Shown piece after piece: positions 19,096 through 53,607 of a stretch of 64,000 nt of DNA (within the stretch, counting starts at the first letter, position 1; each line of letters begins with the position of its first letter). The translations under genes and the position numbers were made by a program. This stretch comes from Pseudomonadota bacterium (lineage in GTDB: Bacteria > Pseudomonadota > Alphaproteobacteria > CACIAM-22H2), in the NCBI GenBank assembly GCA_052387815.1, contig JBQTIU010000028.1:38506-102505 (forward strand), in the 5' to 3' direction. The notes below the pieces were generated by a model that made no database searches, was not told where the DNA came from, and was given only the letters and a program-made list of their open reading frames with translations.

Positions 19096-20673
19096 ATGTG
19101 GCGAATCGGCTTGGCCGCCGACGCGCGCTCGCACAGCCATTTCATGGCGGCGCTCGACGGGCTTTGCGACGCCGTCTCGGCGTTCGAGACGGCGGGCGGG
19201 CGATGGCGGATCGAGGCCCTCGCGCTGGCCGCGCCGGACCGCAGGGCCATCGCCAAGCGCCTGGCGCGGGCCGCGGCGAGCCTGGGCCAGCCCGAGCCGG
19301 TCGCGGTCATCGAGGCGATGCCGGCGGTCGACTGGCTGGCCGAAAACCGCCGGTCCTTTCCGCCGTTCAGCATCGGCCGCTATTTCATCCACGCAACCCA
19401 TGGACGCGCCTGCCCGCCGGCCAGCGCGACCGCCATCGCGCTTGACGCCGGGGCCGCCTTCGGCTCGGGCGAGCACGCGACCACGCGCGGCTGCCTGTTG
19501 GCGCTCGACCGTCTCGCGCGGACCGGGCGCTGCCGGCGGGCGCTCGATCTCGGTTGCGGATCGGGCATCCTCGCGATCGCCATCGCCAAGACCTGGCGGC
19601 GGTGCCGGCAGGTGGCGGCCGCCGATAGCGATCGCGACGCGGTCCGCATTGCGGCCGAGAACGCGGTGCGGAACGGGGTGGCGCGGCCCATCGAGGTCGT
19701 GCTGAGCGCCGGATTCGCCGGACTGTCGGCGCGGCGGGGCTATGACCTCGTGGTCGCCAATCTCCTGGCCGCGCCCTTGTGCCGGCTCGCGCCCGACATC
19801 GCCCGCGCCATCCGACCGCGGGGCATCGCGGTTCTATCGGGCCTGCTCGGGGCCGAGGAAGCGGCGGTGCTGGCCGCGTATCGGACGCAGGGGCTTTGGC
19901 TCCGCCGCCGGATCGCGATCGCGGGCTGGCATACCCTCGTCGTGGCGCGCGGCCGGGCCACGTCATGCGAACGGCGGCCGGCAAGGGGCTGCGGTCGCGA
20001 TCGATCGGGCCGCCGGCGATCAGGCGGCGATGTTGGGCCGGTTGGCGTTGCTCGGAGGCGCGCTCTCCGCCGTGCCGACGAGGCCCCGGAACGGCACATA
20101 GCGACCCGCCGCCACCGCCGGAATGTCGCCGCGCGAAAGGCCGATATCGGCGAGCGCCCGGTCGTCGAGCGACATCAGCTCGTCATAGGCTCGCTGCCGG
20201 CGCCGCCAGGCTCGATAGCGCGCCGCGATGCCGGCGAACAGGCGCGCCATCGCGCCCCCCACCCGGCCGGTCCATTCGGCGACATAGGCGGCGCGCATGG
20301 CGCGCGCGGCGTGCAGGATCGCTTCCTGCCGGTTGGCGTCGTATTCGAACATGAGGTGTCCCCCGCGGGCCGCCATCAGGCCGCAACTGGCAGTTCGTTC
20401 GCGTTGTGGGCCGGGCCGCTCTCCTTGATCGTCCAGCGCCTGCTGTCGTCGCGCGGCGCCAGGCCCGCCGCCACCTGGGCGATGGTGCCGCGGGTCAACC
20501 CGATATCGGCAAGCAGCCGGTCGTCGAGCGCCTCCAACTCGGCAATGGTGGCCTTCCTATTCGACCAGGCCTTGATGGCGCCGAACAGGCGGGCTAGCGC
20601 CTGGCTGGCCTGGACCAGGATCTCGGCGGCTCGCTCCGCGCGCTGGCGCTCCGCCTCGAAACGGACGCCGTAA
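19096..20673 (+). CDS. prmA: Ribosomal protein L11 methyltransferase; homology ends near 19950 but the ORF continues to 20673
   Basis: DWLAEN, AFGSGEHATT, LDLGCGSGILAIA, ANLLA, LSGLL, WHTL; no in-frame stop at the expected end. Confidence 0.85.
   Translation: MWRIGLAADARSHSHFMAALDGLCDAVSAFETAGGRWRIEALALAAPDRRAIAKRLARAAASLGQPEPVAVIEAMPAVDWLAENRRSFPPFSIGRYFIHATHGRACPPASATAIALDAGAAFGSGEHATTRGCLLALDRLARTGRCRRALDLGCGSGILAIAIAKTWRRCRQVAAADSDRDAVRIAAENAVRNGVARPIEVVLSAGFAGLSARRGYDLVVANLLAAPLCRLAPDIARAIRPRGIAVLSGLLGAEEAAVLAAYRTQGLWLRRRIAIAGWHTLVVARGRATSCERRPARGCGRDRSGRRRSGGDVGPVGVARRRALRRADEAPERHIATRRHRRNVAARKADIGERPVVERHQLVIGSLPAPPGSIARRDAGEQARHRAPHPAGPFGDIGGAHGARGVQDRFLPVGVVFEHEVSPAGRHQAATGSSFALWAGPLSLIVQRLLSSRGARPAATWAMVPRVNPISASSRSSSASNSAMVAFLFDQALMAPNRRASAWLAWTRISAARSARWRSASKRTP
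20020..20352 (-). CDS. DUF1127 domain small protein
   Basis: WRRRQRAYDELMSLDDRALADIGLSRGDI. Confidence 0.9.
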   Translation of the reverse strand: MFEYDANRQEAILHAARAMRAAYVAEWTGRVGGAMARLFAGIAARYRAWRRRQRAYDELMSLDDRALADIGLSRGDIPAVAAGRYVPFRGLVGTAESAPPSNANRPNIAA

Positions 20674-20702
20674 TAGCCATTGGGTCGATCATCGTAGCTC
20701 AT
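20376..20702 (-). CDS. DUF1127 domain small protein
   Basis: ATIAELEALDDRLLADIGLTRGTI; ATG 20702 preceded by GGAG. Confidence 0.9.
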   Translation of the reverse strand: MSYDDRPNGYYGVRFEAERQRAERAAEILVQASQALARLFGAIKAWSNRKATIAELEALDDRLLADIGLTRGTIAQVAAGLAPRDDSRRWTIKESGPAHNANELPVAA

Positions 20703-20822
20703 CGTCTTTGCTCCCGTTGTCTTGCTATTTAGGCCGGCCCGCTGAGGTTGGGCCGGCCATGGGGCCGCGCCCCTCCGTGTGCCATTGAAATTAGAACGGC
20801 GGGCTCGAGTTTGGAGTGACAT

Positions 20823-20851
20823 TGCTGCGACGCAGCATTGCAAAATTTGCA
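20823..20851. promoter_or_regulatory. Two adjacent palindromic operators (PhaR-like CTGC-N3-GCAG; LysR-like T-N11-A)
   Basis: TGCTGCG-A-CGCAGCA (20823-20837) and TGCAAA-A-TTTGCA (20839-20851) upstream of the DUF1127 pair. Confidence 0.5.
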
Positions 20852-20944
20852 TGGAATAAAGCGTCAGCGTTGAGCGTGGCTTGCACGGCCACAGAGGAAA
20901 TAGATGTAATAAAACAAGTATCTTCCATCACAGTTTCGCAATAA

Positions 20945-21024
20945 TCTTTCGTCACCAAGCAGCGTTATATTTGCATGGTCTGAAGCCCGCCCGGACCCGG
21001 GTCCGGCTACGGGCGGGTTGCGCC
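20945..21024 (+). repeat. 80-bp direct repeat, left copy
   Basis: Matches 25434-25513 with one mismatch (T21008 vs C25497). Confidence 0.95.
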
Positions 21025-21037
21025 ACCAGGGTTCCCC

Positions 21038-21858
21038 GAGCTCGTCCGGCTGCGCGCCGGCGATTTCCGCGCCTGGCTGGCGGCGCGTCGGGCCGACGGC
21101 CGCGTCGCGGCGTCGAACGCCCGGGCGCTCGCGGTGGTGCGCAACTTCTTCGGCTGGCTCGACCGGCAGGGCCTGGCGCACAACGCCCGAGCTCGCCACG
21201 TTGCGCACGCCGAAGCTCCCCCATGCCGTGCCTAAGCCCCTGGCGATCGCCGACGCCGAGGCGGTGCTGGAGGCGGGCGAGCGGGCGGGCGAGCCGGCGT
21301 GGCTCGGGCGCGCGCGACCGGGCGGTCCTGACCCTGCTCTACGGCGCGGGGATGCGCATCGACGAGGCGCTGTCGCTGAACCGGCGGGTGCTGCCGCTCG
21401 GCGAGACGCTGAGCGTCCTCGGCAAGGGGCGCAAGCAGCGCCTGGGGCTGCTGCTGCCGGCGGTGCGCACCGCGATCGAGGCGTACGTCCGGCTGGTGCC
21501 GGGGAACAAGGGCCCGGACGACCCGCTGTTCCTCGGGGCGCGCGGCAAGCGCCTGCAAGCCGGCGTGGTGCAGCGGCACCTGCGCCGCATCCGCGCCCGG
21601 CTCGGGCTGCCCGACACCGCCACGCCGCCCGCACTGCGCCACAGCCTCGCCACCCACCTGCCGAGCGCCGGGGGTGACCTGCGCGCCATCCAGGAGCTGC
21701 TCGGCCACGCCTCGCTGTCGACCACGCAGCGCTACACCGAGGTCGACGCGGCGCGGCTCATCGAGGTGTTCGAGGCCGCCCATTCCCGGGCGCGCGGGGA
21801 GAGGCATCACCAACCTTCGATATGTGGCGGCCTTGTACGCTGTCGACCGTTCGGGTAG
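21038..21858 (+). pseudogene. xerC: Tyrosine recombinase XerC fragment, 5'-truncated with two +1 frameshifts
   Basis: Frame 2 GDFRAWLA...RNFFGWLDRQG; frame 3 LRTPKLPHAVPKPL; frame 1 RDRAVLTLLYGAGMRIDE, GKGRKQR, LRHS, IQELLGHASLSTTQRYT; HALR motif reads PALR. Confidence 0.9.
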
Positions 21859-21877
21859 CTTGGGGAGCACTGCTGAC

Positions 21878-21969
21878 CAAAGGGGAGTAGCCTTACTGCA
21901 CGTGCCGTCAAGACGGGAGTTTCTCCCCGGCCGTGCAGGCAGCGCGACAGCGTTGCAGCAAGACCTTTG
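21878..21969 (+). ncRNA. yybP-ykoY manganese-sensing riboswitch
   Basis: CAAAGG/CCTTTG P1, GGGGAGTAGC, CCGTCAAGAC loop, GCAAGACC; sits upstream of a P-type ATPase operon. Confidence 0.85.
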
Positions 21970-22111
21970 CCAGGATCGGTGAGTCATATGGGTCTGCCTT
22001 CACTCGGGTGAAGGCCGACCGGTGTCGGCTTGCCGGTGGATGACCCATAGCAGCCGTCGGCACAGCGCCGGCGTTCTGCGTGGCGCTCTACCAACTGGAC
22101 GGAGGCTGGCT

Positions 22112-22549
22112 ATGTTGAAGGCGCTCGTTCCCGTTGATGGCTCAGCGAATTCCATTCAAGCCATCCGGCACGTCATCAAGCTCATCAAGGACCGGGAACC
22201 TCTCGAAGTCCACCTGCTCAATGTGCAACCCTCGCTCGATGGTGAGACAACGAGATTTGTCTCCCACAGGACGGTCGAGGAGTTTCACCGCGAGGAGGGT
22301 GTCAAGATATTGCGGCCAGCCTGCGACCTGCTGGATGCCGCCGGGATTCCTTACCATTGTCACGTTGGGGTGGGTCGTCCGGCCAAAGTCATCGCTCACT
22401 ACGCCAACGATCTGCACTGCGACAAACTCATCATGGGCACGAGGGGCCTTGGCACGATATCCCAGCTGCTCCTCGGATCTGTAACTCATGAAGTGATTCA
22501 TCTTATCGATCCGGCGATCCCGGTGACGTTGGTGAAAAAACCTCGCTGA
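22112..22549 (+). CDS. Universal stress protein (UspA family)
   Basis: LVPVDGS, GRPAKVI, LIMGTRGLG, LLGSVT, IPVTLVK; GGAGG RBS at 22101. Confidence 0.93.
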   Translation: MLKALVPVDGSANSIQAIRHVIKLIKDREPLEVHLLNVQPSLDGETTRFVSHRTVEEFHREEGVKILRPACDLLDAAGIPYHCHVGVGRPAKVIAHYANDLHCDKLIMGTRGLGTISQLLLGSVTHEVIHLIDPAIPVTLVKKPR

Positions 22550-22587
22550 CGGCGGGGGCGGATGCAATGCGAACTGGGAAGACCGTC

Positions 22588-25299
22588 ATGGATCATGACA
22601 CGAACGGCAATCTCGCCGCGGTCGCTAACGCCGGCGTTCCCGCGTGGCACGCGCTGTCGTTCGAGGAAACCGCCGAACATCTGAATGCGTCCCCTAACCT
22701 CGGGCTTTCGCATGAGGAAGCAGCCCGCCGCCTCTCCATTCACGGCCGCAACGAGATTCGTGAGGAGGGGCGACGCAGCGTGTGGAAAATTCTTCTCGGT
22801 CAGTTCACCGATTTCATGATCATTCTTCTGATCTTGGCCGCGGCCATCTCTGGAATCGTCGGCGAGCCCGAGGATGCCATCGTGATCCTGGCGATCGTCG
22901 TGCTGAATGCGTTGATCGGATTCATTCAAGAATACCGCGCCGAGCGCGCATTACAGGCTCTGAGAAAGCTGGCGGCGATCCGCGCCAAGGTCATTCGGGA
23001 CGGTCATATCACCACCATTCTCGCACCTGAACTGGTGCCTGGAGACGTCGTCCTATTGGAGGCAGGCAGTGGCGTGCCTGCCGACCTTCGGCTCATGGAG
23101 GTCATACAACTAAAGATCGAAGAAGCGGCACTGACCGGGGAATCCCAGCCGGTCGAGAAAAGCACCGCTTCGCTAAGCGATCGAGAGTCGCCGTTGGGCG
23201 ACAGGATAAACATGGCCTACACCGGAACGATCGTGACCTACGGTCGGGGCCGCGGCATTGCCGTCAGTACCGGCATGCGGTCGGAGCTCGGAAAAATCGC
23301 CACCCTCCTGGCGGCCACGGAGGAGCCCAAGACGCCCCTGCAAAGGCGTCTCGCCAAGTTCGGCAAGCAATTGGCTCTGGCCGCGATCGGAATATGCATC
23401 TTGGTCTTTATCGGCGGCGTGGCGCGGGGCGAATCGATTTTGCTGATGTTTCTCACCGCGGTCGCCCTAGCCGTGGCGGCCGTTCCGGAAGCCTTGCCGG
23501 CGGTGGTGACCATATCCTTGGCGCTTGGGGCCCAGAGAATGGTCGGCAAGAATGTCTTGATCCGCCGGTTGCCCGCGGTGGAGACGTTGGGCTCGGTGAC
23601 GTACGTCTGTTCCGATAAAACCGGAACGCTCACGGAAAATAAAATGCGTGCCGAGGCGTACTTCATAAACGGCGGTATCCTTGACGAGGTATCGGAAACG
23701 GTCGTTCAGCAACCATCCTGCCGTTTGTTGTTCTCGGCGCTCGCGCTAAACAACGATGCCAACACGGATAAAGACGGCAGGGTGATCGGTGACCCAACGG
23801 AAGCAGCCCTGTACGGCGCCGCGCGACTTGCCGGCTACGACAAGACGGCACTGGAACGAGACATGCCCCGCATCGCGGAGCTGCCGTTCGATTCGGAGCG
23901 CAAGTGCATGACCACGCTGCACCGCGGGCATACCGGCGTGGTCGCGTTCACCAAGGGTGCGCCCGAAAGGGTGATCGAGCGATGCGCGATGTGCCTGACG
24001 GATGCGGGATTGGGTCGAATCGACGTAAGATCGCTGATACATCAAGCCGACCAGATGGCGTCGCAAGGCCTGCGCGTGCTTGCCGTCGCACATCGGGAGT
24101 GGCCGGATCTCCCAGCGGATCTGTCGCCGCACTTTGTCGAACGCGACCTGGTGTTCATTGGCCTGGTCGGTCTCATCGACCCCCCTCGGCCGGAGGTGGC
24201 GGCCGCCGTGGCGGAATGCAAATCGGCCGGCGTCACACCGATCATGATCACCGGGGACCATCCGTTGACGGCGCGTGCGATCGCATCGCGTGTAAATATC
24301 ATCAACGACGGCGGCCTCGTCGTGACCGGTCGACAGCTGGCGCAGATGACCGGCGATAGCCTGGCCGAACAGGTCAACGACATCGGCGTTTACGCCCGGG
24401 TCGACCCGGAGCAGAAGATAAGAATCGTGCAAGCGTTGCAGGACAAGGGTGAATTCGTTGCCATGACCGGCGATGGCGTCAATGACGCGCCGGCATTGAA
24501 GCGTGCCGATATCGGCGTTGCGATGGGCAATATCGGCACCGATGTCGCCCGAGAAGCGTCGCATATGGTGCTACTCGATGATAACTTCGCCAGCATCGTG
24601 GCCGCTGTACGCGAGGGGCGGCGCATTTACGACAACATCCGCCGGTTCGTAAGATATGCATTGGCCGGTAATACCGGCGAGATCGTGACGATCGCCGTGG
24701 CACCGTTTCTGGGTTTGCCGCTGCCGCTCCTGCCGATCCATATCTTGTGGGTCAACCTGGTCACCGATGGACTGCCGGGGTTGGCATTGGCCGTGGAACC
24801 AGCCGAGAAGGGGATCATGCAACGACCCCCGCGGCATCCCAGGGAAAGCATTTTTTCTCGCGGTTTGGGAATACAAGTCGTATGGGTCGGGCTCTTGATT
24901 GGGGGCTTGTCCATTTTCACCCAAGTGTGGGCGATGGGGAACGGGTCGGAGAACTGGCAGACCATGGTGTTTACCACTCTGACGTTCGCCCAGCTATTTC
25001 AGGTGATGGCGATACGTTCGGATCGCGAGTCGCTCTTCCAGCAGGGACTCGGATCCAACTTGCCGTTGCTTGGCACAGTGGTGCTGACCACGGCCCTGCA
25101 ATTGGTGGTGATTTATTCTCCATTCCTGAACGACCTGCTTAAGACACGGCCCTTGAGCCTGGACGAGCTGGCGTTCTGTTTCTTTGTGCCGAGCACGGTA
25201 TTTGCTGCCATCGAGGCAGAGAAGTGGCTCACTCGGAAAGGTTGGAGCCATCGTCATGCAGCGAGCCAACTGGCGGAGCGAGTGCGCTGCTCTCGATGA
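22588..25299 (+). CDS. Cation-transporting P-type ATPase, type IIA (Ca2+/Mn2+; YoaB-like)
   Basis: TGES, VPEALP, DKTGT, KGAPE, MITGDH, GDGVNDAPAL, ILWVNLVTDGLP; alternative start 22567. Confidence 0.95.
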   Translation: MDHDTNGNLAAVANAGVPAWHALSFEETAEHLNASPNLGLSHEEAARRLSIHGRNEIREEGRRSVWKILLGQFTDFMIILLILAAAISGIVGEPEDAIVILAIVVLNALIGFIQEYRAERALQALRKLAAIRAKVIRDGHITTILAPELVPGDVVLLEAGSGVPADLRLMEVIQLKIEEAALTGESQPVEKSTASLSDRESPLGDRINMAYTGTIVTYGRGRGIAVSTGMRSELGKIATLLAATEEPKTPLQRRLAKFGKQLALAAIGICILVFIGGVARGESILLMFLTAVALAVAAVPEALPAVVTISLALGAQRMVGKNVLIRRLPAVETLGSVTYVCSDKTGTLTENKMRAEAYFINGGILDEVSETVVQQPSCRLLFSALALNNDANTDKDGRVIGDPTEAALYGAARLAGYDKTALERDMPRIAELPFDSERKCMTTLHRGHTGVVAFTKGAPERVIERCAMCLTDAGLGRIDVRSLIHQADQMASQGLRVLAVAHREWPDLPADLSPHFVERDLVFIGLVGLIDPPRPEVAAAVAECKSAGVTPIMITGDHPLTARAIASRVNIINDGGLVVTGRQLAQMTGDSLAEQVNDIGVYARVDPEQKIRIVQALQDKGEFVAMTGDGVNDAPALKRADIGVAMGNIGTDVAREASHMVLLDDNFASIVAAVREGRRIYDNIRRFVRYALAGNTGEIVTIAVAPFLGLPLPLLPIHILWVNLVTDGLPGLALAVEPAEKGIMQRPPRHPRESIFSRGLGIQVVWVGLLIGGLSIFTQVWAMGNGSENWQTMVFTTLTFAQLFQVMAIRSDRESLFQQGLGSNLPLLGTVVLTTALQLVVIYSPFLNDLLKTRPLSLDELAFCFFVPSTVFAAIEAEKWLTRKGWSHRHAASQLAERVRCSR

Positions 25300-25433
25300 T
25301 GGACGATGGTTGCTCAAGAAATAGCGTATGATGAAGTGCCAAGCGATTGGTCGGGGTTCGCGAGTCCGGTTGGCAGCCCCGCCCCGCCGCCGCTACTCGC
25401 GCGCCGGCCCGCGCCGGCGGATCAGCATAAGAT

Positions 25434-25513
25434 TCTTTCGTCACCAAGCAGCGTTATATTTGCATGGTCTGAAGCCCGCCCGGACCCGGGTCCGGCCACG
25501 GGCGGGTTGCGCC
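25434..25513 (+). repeat. 80-bp direct repeat, right copy (65 bp upstream of the aminopeptidase P start)
   Basis: Matches 20945-21024 with one mismatch; contains the 16-bp palindrome CCGGACCCGGGTCCGG. Confidence 0.95.
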
Positions 25514-25578: not shown

Positions 25579-27678
25579 GTGGCGAACGATTCGGCGTGCC
25601 GGTTGAAATATCAGGGCGATGCGGCGCTCGACCGGCTCTTGGCGAAGGCCGGGTCGCCCTATGGGGCGGCGGCGGCGCGGGCGCTCCTTGCCGGCGTGGT
25701 CGCCGCGCCCGAGCCGGACGGCAGACCCGCGGCGGCGTGGATGTCGCTGGTGGCTGCCGATCCCGGCCCGGCCCTCCAGGCGCAGCTCGCGGCGCTCAAG
25801 GCCGAGCTGGCGAGCGCGGGCGGCGACTCCGCAACGGCGCGGTGGACGCCGGCGCGGCTGGCCGAGTTCCGCGCCGAGCTGACGGGGCGCAATCTCGCCG
25901 GCTTCGTCCTGCCGCGCGGCGATGAGCACCAGGGCGAATACGTGGCGCCGCGCGCCGAGCGGCTGGCGTGGCTGACCGGGTTCACGGGCTCGGCGGGCCT
26001 TGCGATCGTGCTCCAAGAACGCGCCGCGATCTTCGTCGACGGCCGCTACACCCTCCAGGTGCGCGCCGAGGTCGATGTCGGCCTCTTCGAGCCGCGCCAC
26101 CTGATCGACGAACCGCCGGCCGACTGGCTCGCCGCCGCCGTGCCGGCCGGTACACGCATCGGCTTCGATCCCTGGCTGCACACGGCCGAGGGCATCGCCA
26201 AGCTCAAGGCCGCGTGCGCCAAGGCGGACGCCGAGCTCGTCGCGGTCGAGGGCAACCCGGTCGACGCCATCTGGAAGGACCAGCCGCCGCCCCCGATCGC
26301 CCCCGTGGTTCCCCACGACCTCCGTTTCGCCGGCCGCGCCGCCGGCGACAAACGCGCCGAGCTCGCCCACAAGCTCGCCGCCGACGGCTTCGCGGCGGCG
26401 GTGCTCACGGCGCCGGATTCGATCGCCTGGCTGCTCAATATCCGCGGCGGCGACGTGCCGCACACGCCGTTGGCCCTGTCGTTCGCGATTCTCAACCGGG
26501 ACGGCGGGCTCGACCTGTTCATCGATGCGCGCAAGCTCGCGCCGGGCACGGCCGCTCATCTCGGCACCTGGGTCCGGGTGCATGCGCCCGAGGCGCTCGG
26601 CCCCGAGCTCGACCGCGCGTGCCGGGCGGCGAGCCGCCCCAAGGCGCGCATCCTCGTCGATGCCGCAACCGCGTCGGTGTGGATCGGCGAGCGGATCGAG
26701 AAGGCCGGCGCCGAGGCGGTGCGCGGGCAGGACCCGTGCGCGCTGCCCAAGGCGTGCAAGAACGACACCGAGCTCGAGGGCGCGCGCCTGGCCCACCGGC
26801 GGGACGGCGCGGCCATGGCCCGCTTCCTCGCTTGGCTGGCCGGGGAGGCGCCCAAGGGCGCGCTCGGCGAACTCGACGCCGCACGGCACCTCCTCGAATG
26901 CCGGTGCGCCGGCGAGAACTTTCGCGACTTGAGCTTCACGACGATTTCGGGCGCCGGCCCGAACGGCGCCATCGTCCATTACCGCGTCACTGCTGCGACC
27001 AACCGCCGCCTCGCGCCCGATATGATCTACCTCGTCGACTCGGGCGCCCAGTACCTCGAGGCGACCACCGACGTGACCCGCGCCGTGGCCATCGGCCGGC
27101 CGACCGCCGAGCAGCGCGACCGCTTCACCCGCGTGCTCAAGGGCCATATCGCAATCGCCACCGCCCGCTTCCCCAAGGGCACCACCGGCCCGCAGCTCGA
27201 TATCCTCGCCCGCCAGGCGCTGTGGGCGGTCGGGCTCGACTACGACCATGGCACCGGCCATGGGGTGGGAAGCTATCTCGCGGTCCACGAAGGGCCGCAG
27301 CGCATCGCCAAACTCCCCAACCCGGCGGCCCTGCGGCCGGGCATGATCGTGTCCAACGAGCCCGGCTACTACAAGGCGGGCGAGTACGGCATCCGCACCG
27401 AGAACCTGGTGGCGGTGCGCGAGGTCGAGGTGCCGGTCGCGCCCGGCGATGCCGAGGGCGGGCGCAAGATGCTCGGCTTCGAGACGCTGACGCTGGTCCC
27501 CATCGACCGGGCGCTGATCGAGGTCGCGCTCCTGGGCGCGGACGAGCGCGCCTGGCTCGACGCCTATCATGAGCGGGTGCGCGAGACGATCTCGCCGCTG
27601 GTCGATGCCGCGACGGCCGGCTGGCTCGCCGCCGCCACGCGGCCGCTGCGCGCGCAACGGCGACACTCGACGCCATGA
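25579..27678 (+). CDS. Xaa-Pro aminopeptidase (M24B) with ~90-aa N-terminal extension
   Basis: DEHQGEYV, WLTGFTGSAG, DGRYTLQ, DSGAQY, DVTR, HGTGHGVG, VHEGP, NEPGYY, GIRTEN; AGGAGG RBS before GTG 25579. Confidence 0.95.
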   Translation: MANDSACRLKYQGDAALDRLLAKAGSPYGAAAARALLAGVVAAPEPDGRPAAAWMSLVAADPGPALQAQLAALKAELASAGGDSATARWTPARLAEFRAELTGRNLAGFVLPRGDEHQGEYVAPRAERLAWLTGFTGSAGLAIVLQERAAIFVDGRYTLQVRAEVDVGLFEPRHLIDEPPADWLAAAVPAGTRIGFDPWLHTAEGIAKLKAACAKADAELVAVEGNPVDAIWKDQPPPPIAPVVPHDLRFAGRAAGDKRAELAHKLAADGFAAAVLTAPDSIAWLLNIRGGDVPHTPLALSFAILNRDGGLDLFIDARKLAPGTAAHLGTWVRVHAPEALGPELDRACRAASRPKARILVDAATASVWIGERIEKAGAEAVRGQDPCALPKACKNDTELEGARLAHRRDGAAMARFLAWLAGEAPKGALGELDAARHLLECRCAGENFRDLSFTTISGAGPNGAIVHYRVTAATNRRLAPDMIYLVDSGAQYLEATTDVTRAVAIGRPTAEQRDRFTRVLKGHIAIATARFPKGTTGPQLDILARQALWAVGLDYDHGTGHGVGSYLAVHEGPQRIAKLPNPAALRPGMIVSNEPGYYKAGEYGIRTENLVAVREVEVPVAPGDAEGGRKMLGFETLTLVPIDRALIEVALLGADERAWLDAYHERVRETISPLVDAATAGWLAAATRPLRAQRRHSTP

Positions 27679-28502
27679 CCCGCGACCAAGCCATCCGCAT
27701 CCTCCACGACCATGCCGGCGAAATCCGCGCTCGCGGCGTGACCCGCTTGGCGCTGTTCGGTTCGACCGTTCGCGGCGGAGCTCGCGCCGACAGCGATGTC
27801 GACCTCCTGGTGGATATCGACCGGAGGCGAAAATTTTCGCTGCTCGATCAGGCCGGCCTGCAAATATTTCTGGGGGAGATGCTCGACTGCGAGGTCGAAG
27901 TGGCGACGCGCGACGGCCTCAAGCCGTTCCTCAAGGACAACATCCTCGCCGAAGCGGTTGAAGTCTTTCCCGAGCTCGGGCGACGCAACGATGTGGAGGG
28001 AGAATCAGACATGCCGCGCCGCAATCCGCGCCAGCCACTCGAGGACATGCTGGAGGCCGTCGATGCCATCGACCGCTTCCTGGCCGGCAAGTCGTTCGCG
28101 GATTACCTGGCGACGGACATAATGCGGGCGGCCGTCGAGCGGAATATCGAGATCATCTCCGAGGCTTCGCGTCAGATCCCGAAGGACTTGACCGCCCGGC
28201 ATCCCGGGATTGCCTGGAAGGACATCGCCGGCATCGGCAATATCCTTCGCCACGGCTACGAGATCATCGAGGATGAGCGAATCTGGGCCGTGGCGCGCGG
28301 CCGTCGAAGCGATGATCCGCGACGGCGAGCGGCGCGGCGGGAGGAGGGGCGGCTTTTGATTCCGCCTCCGCGTCATTCCCCCGGTAGGGGCGAGGCCGCG
28401 AGGCCGCGAGGCAGCGCCTCGCGCCTCGCCGGTTTGCAACCCGCCCGCGTGGGCGGGTTAAAAACCCGCCCCTACCACGGCAATGGCGGTGGCATTTCGT
28501 AG
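27675..28502 (+). CDS. In-frame fusion of MNT nucleotidyltransferase (MntA-like) and HEPN/DUF86 (HepT-like); C-terminus frameshifted
   Basis: LFGSTVRG..SDVDLLV MNT motif; second domain from ATG 28011 with AVERNIEIISEA, IAWKDIAGIGNILRHGY. Confidence 0.85.
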   Translation: MTRDQAIRILHDHAGEIRARGVTRLALFGSTVRGGARADSDVDLLVDIDRRRKFSLLDQAGLQIFLGEMLDCEVEVATRDGLKPFLKDNILAEAVEVFPELGRRNDVEGESDMPRRNPRQPLEDMLEAVDAIDRFLAGKSFADYLATDIMRAAVERNIEIISEASRQIPKDLTARHPGIAWKDIAGIGNILRHGYEIIEDERIWAVARGRRSDDPRRRAARREEGRLLIPPPRHSPGRGEAARPRGSASRLAGLQPARVGGLKTRPYHGNGGGIS

Positions 28503-53103: not shown

Positions 53104-53199
53104 TTATCGGGCGGGGGCCGCATAAGGCTCGGGGCTGTTCATTCCATCCCGCTGATTTGCACCCAAAAATACGATCAAGCCGCGGCGCTGGAAAATTGC

Positions 53200-53607
53200 G
53201 TGCCAGATGGCCTGTAAGCCGGGTTCTGTCCGCACCCCTTGGAGGGGAACGCGGGATGGCCATTCCTCTACGACGCCTGTTGCCAGGCGCCTCCAGCGAC
53301 CTACCCGGGCGACGGCGCGGAAACGCGCCGGTCCGGGAAACCCCGGACGTGCCGCCCCTATTTGGTCTTGCTCCGGGTGGGGTTTGCCGTGCCACCCCCG
53401 TTGCCGGGGGCGCGGTGCGCTCTTACCGCACCTTTTCACCCTTGCCGCCGGATGTGAGGTCCGGAGGCGGTATGCTTTCTGTTGCACTTTCCCTGGGGTC
53501 GCCCCCGCCGGGGGTTACCCGGCACCCTTGTTTCCGTGGAGCCCGGACTTTCCTCGCCGGCGTGCGCTTCCCGCCCTTGCCGGCGCGGCCATCCGGCCAT
53601 CTGGCAC
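53200..53607 (-). ncRNA. rnpB: RNase P RNA (class A)
   Basis: GAGGAAAGTCCGGGCTCC, GAAAGTGCAACAGA, AACCCGGCTTA; P1 helix GTGCCAGATGGCC pairs 53200-53212 with 53595-53607. Confidence 0.97.

Follow-up and report, generated by a model that had tools for sequence, protein, structure and literature searches.

How does a gene for a cation-transporting P-type ATPase come to lie second in an operon, behind a gene for a universal stress protein (USP) and under a leader that carries the loop motifs of the manganese-sensing yybP-ykoY riboswitches and is nevertheless passed over by the Rfam model of that class? The question is raised by positions 21878 to 25299 of a 64,000-nucleotide stretch of DNA (hereafter the window, whose numbering is used throughout) from contig JBQTIU010000028.1 of an alphaproteobacterial genome of the CACIAM-22H2 lineage (GCA_052387815.1). 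Our overall reading, which we hold to be likely, is that this cassette is a horizontally acquired operon for inducible efflux of divalent cations, consisting of a riboswitch without the hairpin P2, a USP gene and a gene for a P2A-type pump. The positions of the individual features are collected in Table 1.

The first-pass annotation of this DNA had placed the hallmarks of yybP-ykoY at 21878-21969, and direct reading finds every motif that it named in its place, with GGGGAGTAGC at 21882-21891, CCGTCAAGAC at 21905-21914 and GCAAGACC at 21958-21965. The L1 loop, closed by P1, is formed by GGGGAGUAG on the 5′ side (21882-21890) and by a 3′ strand containing AGA (21957-21963), and the P3 arm has an asymmetric L3 bulge with C-A, flanked by P3.1 and P3.2. 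The junction is not four-way: P4 is there, P2 is gone, and CUUA stands in its place. From the L1 motif to the L3 motif the distance is 14 nucleotides (nt) in the window versus 27-29 nt in P2-bearing copies (L057 and L096). All stems of the window element are intact when checked pair by pair, and the metal-site nucleotides of L1 and L3 are unchanged. In a report on the Streptococcus pneumoniae mgtA riboswitch, the AGA on the 3′ side of L1 is termed invariable, and the C-A of L3 corresponds to the metal-contacting C40-A41 described there (Martin et al., 2019, PMC6649816). The composite GGGGAGTAGC-N9-19-CGTCA-N40-70-AGACC has a single match in the 64-kb window and none in 100 dinucleotide-preserving shuffles, the folding of the aptamer stretch beats that of 200 out of 200 shuffles (z -3.3), and the 5′ motif of L1 is invariant in homologues that were found without the use of a motif pattern (G009, G422, G133 and L091). 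The window element is very probably a member of the yybP-ykoY class, and as such would be expected to bind the ligand of that class.

Two points count against this assignment, and the first is the Rfam score itself. With the Rfam Manganese model RF00080, whose gathering threshold of 45 bits is an operational cut-off and no structural definition, no match at that threshold was obtained in the window, the leader or the whole genome. A permissive scan returned 9.6-9.8 bits (E 0.5-3.3), in an alignment limited to the 5′ GGGGAGUAGC motif. The first-pass annotation had proposed this Infernal scan and had itself named the lack of a significant match as grounds for giving up the riboswitch; on those grounds it would have to be given up. 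We set the Rfam failure aside as a refutation, since the P2-less structure explains the low score and the covariation presented below is strong. Membership of the class, as first proposed, is thus borne out by comparative evidence, from covariation and homologues, and not by the Rfam score.

The structural cause of the low score, namely that P2 is missing from the element, can be followed in related sequences. RF00080 does work in this bacterial family, in which 17 of 61 genomes have a match above the cut-off. In one genome (G009) a canonical copy reaches 74 bits, and another element shares 79% identity with the window leader; this second element spans the whole Rfam model at 26.3 bits (E 6e-5 to 3e-4), and in its alignment 19 model positions of P2 are deleted, with the P3/L3 arm and the next hairpin aligned. 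None of 20 other P2-less copies reaches the Rfam cut-off, 11 of these 20 scoring 24.8-36.7 bits, and three cassette-type leaders give no match to RF00080 at E <= 0.01. The P2-less form passes below current annotation. As regards the model itself, the first 25 positions in its printed alignments, including the 5′ strand of P1, are displayed unpaired, and the region matching the 3′ L1/P1 strand falls within a long, weakly conserved loop; neither P1 nor the 3′ L1 motif seems to contribute much to an RF00080 score.

The comparative evidence starts from a covariance model, R1, which was built from two copies (window and G009). R1 finds a third P2-less copy in a Nitrospirota metagenome-assembled genome (L091; 42 bits, E 1e-8), upstream of a pump 57% identical to that of the window. 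Two weak R1 matches in another genome (G008; E ~1e-3) are without the L1 core motif and were dropped as probable false positives. A pattern with the short L1-to-L3 spacing has at least 119 matches in the metagenome collection, and R1 matches end to end in 80 of the 80 metagenome loci fetched (E 5.5e-4 to 2e-27). In the resulting alignment (84 matches, 82 distinct sequences) 94.9% of cells are paired, versus 31-44% with slid partners, and compensatory cells number 542, versus 67-137 in the slid controls. Changes on both sides are seen in 21 of the 30 pairs, and the observed covariation score was reached by none of 500 shuffles. The second point against the assignment concerns the reach of these figures, as the loop motifs and the inner four P1 pairs were set by the selection pattern, and the sequences had been aligned to the proposed structure. 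Independent tests of covariation are those of P3.1, P3.2, P4 and the outer two P1 pairs only, and all of these covary: among the 82 distinct sequences, both-side changes occur in 12 of the 15 pairs of P3.1 and P3.2 and in every pair of P4 (7/7), and the outer two P1 pairs alternate between CG and UA and between AU and GC.

The P2-less copies also stand where a leader of manganese-efflux genes would be expected. TerC is a standard target of manganese riboswitches, and the 71 first open reading frames (ORFs) called behind P2-less copies include 31 for TerC, 5 for a P-type ATPase and 1 for GDT1; a P2 ATPase lies downstream in 11 of the 80 loci (tblastn). Two of the other first-ORF products, peptidase M48 (5/71) and a TFIIB-type Zn-ribbon protein (1/71), are seldom listed as targets of this riboswitch, and in the Nitrospirota locus a TFIIB-type Zn-ribbon ORF lies between riboswitch and pump. 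In three metagenome loci (L190 1996-2100, L146 1865-1974 and L177 1996-2108) the P2-less riboswitch lies a short way upstream of a TerC-USP fusion gene that is transcribed divergently, and a short ORF with a LysR-type helix-turn-helix domain follows the riboswitch in L190 and L177; the arrangement in these three loci may be a riboswitch-to-regulator cascade. Guanidine-I riboswitches (L137 122-224 and L142 829-932; 87.6 and 81.3 bits, above cut-off) lie ~500-1100 nt upstream of the manganese riboswitch in two loci, on the same strand.

How the aptamer might act on the genes behind it is suggested by the leaders of five cassettes (window, G009, G422, G133 and L198). In their ligand-free minimum free energy (MFE) folds, CCUUUGCCAG (in the window) or its counterpart pairs with CUGGACGGAGG or its counterpart in 5/5 cases, the former serving as anti-Shine-Dalgarno (anti-SD) strand to the Shine-Dalgarno (SD) region in the latter, with duplex energies of -9.9 to -14.5 kcal/mol. 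The pairing has been retained in leaders with spacers that have diverged to 62% mean column identity, and it survives sequence change: in G422, CCUUUGUCAG pairs with CUGACGGAGG, and G133 has CUGGUGGAGG. We propose that the 3′ strand of P1 would pair with the SD region in the absence of metal, and that Mn2+ would dock L1 against L3 and thereby hold P1 closed, so that the SD sequence is freed and translation begins. Control by a translational ON switch of this kind, through SD release, is in our judgement probable. The hairpin at 21996-22015 that the first-pass annotation had pointed out is present, and a terminator switch operated by it was considered and ruled out: no U tract follows, no terminator-like site was found in the leader (21859-22111), and the spacer in which it lies is not conserved. 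Two results tell against the proposed control. A search for a sigma-70-like promoter found none, and forcing P1 to form costs 15-19 kcal/mol in the nearest-neighbour model, more than a simple equilibrium switch could afford. Given this cost, the choice between the two folds is probably kinetic, the switching decision being made during transcription.

A leader that scores 9.6 bits with Rfam, belongs to a cassette foreign to its genome and has in G009 a counterpart next to a decayed USP gene could in principle be a chance resemblance, or the relic of a dead riboswitch that regulates nothing. This we regard as very improbable, in view of the empty shuffles for the composite motif, the intact stems and the intact ORFs for both downstream proteins, and of an aptamer and an anti-SD/SD pairing that have been kept over five leaders with diverged spacers.

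Behind the leader, Pfam confirms both ORFs in the order first reported, a UspA-type gene followed by a P-type IIA ATPase gene. The pump start lies 17 nt after the USP stop. Translation of the USP cistron would enable expression of the pump, by coupling over this gap and by protection of the transcript. The cassette of G009 is consistent with pump control by way of first-cistron translation: its decayed first ORF has kept its start, runs for 82 codons and ends, as calculated from the coordinates, ~12 nt before the pump start.

What, then, is the USP doing there? The protein of the window has a G-x2-G-x9-G-S motif at residues 109-123 and is predicted to be of the nucleotide-binding type (UspFG/MJ0577-like), G-x2-G-x9-G-(S/T) being what we take to be the nucleotide-binding USP motif. 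Its standalone subfamily comprises 444 proteins (E <= 1e-15), with 59-73% identity for the best 120, and the motif is retained in 116 of 119 standalone homologues. Sampling 401 genomes of the class gave 21 homologue loci besides the window's own. At 17 of these 21, one of them in the window's own genome, the USP immediately follows a TerC domain in the same orientation, at two (G422 and G133) a P2-less riboswitch is followed by a USP gene (64% identical) and then a P2 pump gene, and at the other two the USP is beside neither TerC nor a pump. Thus, 19 of 21 genomic homologues adjoin TerC or sit in a riboswitch-controlled pump cassette. The fetched flanks of the 17 genomic TerC-USP copies contain no L1 motif (0/17). 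A metagenome contig (L198) holds a further riboswitch-USP-P2 pump cassette with a USP 61% identical to that of the window, and a wider search for cassette copies in order-level sets of 3 and 50 genomes added none. The co-occurrence that the first-pass annotation had suggested surveying is therefore a repeated one (G422, G133 and L198), but it is rare in the pump's own clade.

Fusions point in the same direction. Longer proteins with a close USP relative number 155 at E <= 1e-10, and the best 120 of these 155, re-checked with Pfam, comprise 104 TerC-USP fusions, 14 USP-only proteins and 2 P2-ATPase-USP fusions. In P0018 (1121 aa) an entire P2 pump, with 44% identity to the window pump, ends in a USP domain that is 45% identical to the window USP and whose first residues match the N-terminus of the latter. 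In addition, a USP gene lies just downstream of a related pump in L083 (found by phmmer, and additional to the Pfam count given below). The subfamily, standalone or fused, has thus been seen on either side of P2 pumps and joined covalently to them, and also as part of TerC fusions. On another contig of the window's own genome (G000:C12:9240-10354) lies a TerC-USP gene, with 52% identity between its USP domain and the cassette USP; no other TerC gene was found in that genome, and the fetched flanks of this one show no L1 motif.

An obligatory partnership of USP and pump is opposed by several observations. The fused USP domains are a sister subtype and mostly motif-less, the nucleotide motif being found in 20 of the 104 TerC fusions and in 0/2 ATPase fusions. 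As a neighbour of the pump's nearest relatives, a USP gene occurs upstream in 1 of 72 loci, and there on the opposite strand, and downstream in 1 of 68 loci of the pump's clade (Pfam; the single-sequence phmmer searches for USP beside pumps were backed by Pfam scans). In G009 the USP has decayed to 30 recognisable codons (53% identical) next to an intact riboswitch and an intact pump ORF (977 aa). Finally, the pumps of the other cassettes are 76-83% identical to one another and 41-46% identical to the window pump, so that either two lineages of pump have been joined to the leader-USP module or the pairing is ancient. Riboswitch and pump might thus work as proposed with the USP as a passenger, whether a co-induced stress protein or a mere translated leader cistron. 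Besides the sparse neighbourhood counts and the two pump lineages, the 82-codon remnant of G009 speaks for this, as any translated ORF may suffice there, and so does the Zn-ribbon ORF that fills the USP position in L091. We take a passenger USP to be a genuine possibility of less than even odds, as 19 of 21 genomic homologues adjoin TerC or lie in a cassette, 106 of the best 120 of the 155 longer relatives are fused to TerC or a P2 ATPase, a USP gene follows the related pump of L083, and the association is too narrow for a general stress protein.

The idea of the first-pass annotation that the USP is a partner of the pump therefore stands in part: it draws support from the fusions and from the conserved neighbourhoods of the USP subfamily, and none from the pump's clade, with which the USP is not conserved. 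The most likely role of the USP is that of a nucleotide-binding accessory or regulator acting on the exporter rather than that of a bystander; for a functional tie to this particular pump, judged from such associations, we consider the chances about even. A wider proposal, that the subfamily is a dedicated cytoplasmic regulatory subunit common to two unrelated classes of Mn2+ exporter, the P2A ATPases and TerC, is tentative and on balance doubtful. In this proposal the USP would be free and nucleotide-binding in the riboswitch cassettes, whereas elsewhere it would be part of fusions and mostly without the motif.

The pump has the full P2A domain set, with Cation_ATPase_N, E1-E2, a HAD/P-domain with CSDKTGT and Cation_ATPase_C, and its initial assignment as a P-type IIA ATPase is upheld by its closest relatives. 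Among 22 NCBIfam models the PMR1-type model TIGR01522 is the best; with 756.5 bits against a cut-off of 798.3 the pump is not an equivalog of this model, and we therefore label it PMR1/LMCA1-like. The best solved relatives are Listeria LMCA1 (PDB 6zhf, 4e-195) and human SPCA1 (PDB 8iwp and 7yag; 5e-173). The M4 motif P-E-A-L-P (23485-23499) and N702, E705, N730 and D734 in M5/M6 are invariant in 38 aligned relatives; the M4 Glu and these four residues are presumably cation ligands, as in SERCA-type pumps. P-E-A-L-P is also found in the cassette pumps of G133, G422 and G009, whereas the family pump of G001, the USP-fused P0018 and L160 have P-E-G-L-P.

Which ion the pump carries is less clear-cut, as riboswitch control would point to Mn2+ and the neighbours of its relatives to Ca2+. 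The PMR1 type carries both ions in eukaryotes. Two counts do not favour an Mn2+ pump under riboswitch control: a Na+/Ca2+-exchanger gene lies directly upstream on the same strand in 22 of the 72 nearest pump relatives, and the L1 motif is found upstream in 3 of the 80 nearest pump loci (77/80 being without it). Element and pump could instead serve Ca2+ homeostasis, with a Ca2+-responsive variant of the aptamer and a Ca2+ exporter like LMCA1. The exchanger neighbours and the rank of the Ca2+-ATPase LMCA1 as closest solved relative agree with this, as does the observation in the pneumococcal study that the mgtA aptamer binds Ca2+ ~50-fold more tightly than Mn2+ in vitro (PMC6649816). In the same account, however, the pneumococcal gene is induced in cells by Mn2+ and not by Ca2+, and Mn2+ gives by far the stronger read-through (PMC6649816). 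Most often the P2-less copies are followed by TerC (31/71), to which family the Mn exporters Alx and YkoY belong, the metal-site nucleotides are those of the Mn2+ aptamers, and the best family model is of PMR1 type. We consider a system for Ca2+ alone improbable. Mn2+ is probably among the pump's substrates, and the protein would act as an exporter of cytoplasmic Mn2+ that probably also handles Ca2+. The original claim of an exporter for Mn2+ rather than Ca2+ seems too narrow: given the exchanger neighbours and the pneumococcal precedent, in which MgtA exports both Mn2+ and Ca2+ (PMC6649816), dual specificity is the safer description.

The cassette appears to be foreign DNA in the genome of the window, acquired horizontally, and its GC content lies below that of both flanks (Table 1). 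Against any P2 ATPase of its own family, in which 41 of 50 genomes have one, the window pump shows no more than 49% identity, but with pumps of Binatia, Nitrospirota, Methylococcales and Thiobacillus it shares 56-65%. Of 50 family genomes, 48 have the downstream M24 peptidase gene; immediately upstream of it lies PrmA in 9 of the 19 loci examined in relatives and a recombinase in 0/19, which rules out the adjacency of the recombinase (XerC) and M24 genes as an ancestral state. From the PrmA-M24 adjacency in relatives, the ~4.9 kb between PrmA and M24, with recombinase and cassette, looks like an insertion. The recombinase scores 176 bits with the XerC model TIGR02224 (cut-off 335), its catalytic half alone matching. 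A search for flanking direct repeats gave just 12-20 nt matches spanning the insertion, none of them convincing. The canonical riboswitches of the family precede GDT1 (4 of 10 ORFs called) or MntP (1/10), and neither MntP, GDT1 nor a canonical Mn riboswitch was found in the window's genome (94.8% complete); the cassette may be the organism's inducible Mn exporter.

Other features of the surroundings are recorded here for completeness. The PrmA ORF (19096-20673, plus strand) encodes 525 aa, of which the PrmA domain is limited to residues 37-284, and in the stretch towards the recombinase gene (20500-20999) the GC content dips to 0.58, which may mark the left edge of the insertion. Directly after the M24 gene, a 275-aa ORF (27675-28502, plus strand) with MNT-like nucleotidyltransferase and HepT-like RNase domains looks like a fused toxin-antitoxin pair. 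At 53199-53604 on the minus strand lies a full-length bacterial RNase P RNA of class A (292.8 bits).

Table 1. Features of the riboswitch-USP-pump cassette and its immediate surroundings (window positions; +, forward strand;., no strand).
Feature	Position	Strand	Remarks
P2-less yybP-ykoY (Mn2+) riboswitch aptamer (class membership very probable), three-way junction	21878..21969	+	model R1 118 bits; Rfam RF00080 9.6 bits
P1 5′ strand CAAAGG	21878..21883	+	pairs with CCTTTG 21964-21969
L1 5′ motif GGAGUA and 2-bp P1.2 strand (GC)	21884..21891	+	agrees with Rfam consensus GGGGAGUAGC
Linker CUUA, 4 nt, where hairpin P2 is expected	21892..21895	+	P2 deleted in Rfam alignment of G009 homologue
P3 arm	21896..21938	+	P3.1 CUGCACG.GCCG / CGGC CGUGCAG; L3 bulge; P3.2 GGGAG/CUCCC
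L3 bulge UCAAGAC, 7 nt, between P3.1 and P3.2	21908-21914	+	asymmetric; contains C-A
P4 hairpin GCAGCGC-GACA-GCGUUGC	21939..21956	+	7/7 pairs vary on both sides
L1 3′ strand AGCAAGA (21957-21963) and P1 3′ strand CCUUUG	21957..21969	+	AGA present
Predicted anti-SD segment CCUUUGCCAG, overlapping P1	21964..21973	+	pairs with SD region in MFE folds
Spacer hairpin GCCTTCAC-TCGG-GTGAAGGC	21996..22015	+	no U tract follows
CUGGACGGAGG including SD sequence GGAGG (22101-22105)	22095..22105	+	anti-SD partner; kept in 5/5 cassette leaders
USP gene, 145 aa, first cistron, predicted nucleotide-binding type	22112..22549	+	Pfam Usp 4.4e-23
P2A-type cation ATPase gene, 910 aa, second cistron	22567..25299	+	Pfam Cation_ATPase_N/C, E1-E2_ATPase, Hydrolase
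Divergent Xer-like tyrosine recombinase gene, probably part of inserted block	20881..21858	+	Pfam Phage_integrase 2.1e-28
Low-GC island	22000..25500	.	GC 0.58-0.63 versus 0.70-0.77 in flanks

The implications reach beyond this one locus. Mn regulons are under-called, as the P2-less form is widespread and lies below the Rfam cut-off, and a model that includes this form would remedy it. The role of most universal stress proteins is unclear, and a subfamily that keeps the company of Mn exporters offers a hypothesis that can be tested at the bench; likewise, the mechanism of TerC is poorly understood, and a recurrent USP appendage provides a new handle on its regulation. Were the USP indeed a dedicated subunit, Mn efflux would be controlled twice, by Mn2+ sensing at the level of RNA and by gating of the protein through cellular energy or a second messenger, and a clade of universal stress proteins would gain a defined biochemical job.

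Among known systems, the closest is S. pneumoniae mgtA, likewise a three-way-junction yybP-ykoY ON switch for an LMCA1-related P2-type ATPase and likewise with the metal-site nucleotides of L1 and L3 kept (Martin et al., 2019, PMC6649816). The same text indicates three differences. The pneumococcal RNA keeps P2 and has P4 replaced by UNAAA, whereas the window RNA keeps P4 and is without P2; the pneumococcal platform is a transcription terminator, whereas the window leader shows no terminator and a predicted sequestration of the SD sequence; and the pneumococcal pump gene comes first and is followed by a glutathione S-transferase gene, whereas in the window the USP gene comes first (PMC6649816). 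The account of Martin et al. is compatible with a P2-less form (PMC6649816). With the Lactococcus lactis yoaB and Escherichia coli mntP and alx riboswitches, as described there, the window element shares the loop motifs, the docking of L1 against L3 and the target classes P-type ATPase, TerC and MntP (PMC6649816); those riboswitches are four-way junctions recognised by Rfam, whereas the window form scores 9.6 bits. The pump shares full-length similarity and the DKTGT phosphorylation motif with LMCA1 and SPCA1.

For the USP, the nearest parallels are the TerC-USP fusions, given in one source as 'YjbE family integral membrane protein'. Their USP domains are 35-47% identical to the window USP, but they are covalently attached behind TerC and the nucleotide motif is missing in 84 of 104, whereas the window USP is a separate protein with the motif kept. 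A second parallel is the sensor kinase KdpD, whose USP domain is reported to bind c-di-AMP and links a nucleotide signal to the control of a P-type pump (PMC4686210, PMC8214093). There the USP domain lies within the sensor kinase and acts on transcription, whereas the USP of the window is a separate, co-expressed protein, or is fused elsewhere (PMC4686210, PMC8214093). In the titles and abstracts covered, we found no description of a USP-TerC or USP-P2 pump module, nor of a USP as the first riboswitch-controlled cistron. A P2 pump under riboswitch control is already known from S. pneumoniae mgtA, and the riboswitch of the window adds a new member to a known class, with a known type of structural variation. 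Apparently new, by comparison, are a USP as the first riboswitch-controlled cistron and the near-exclusive link of its subfamily with TerC and P2 pumps.

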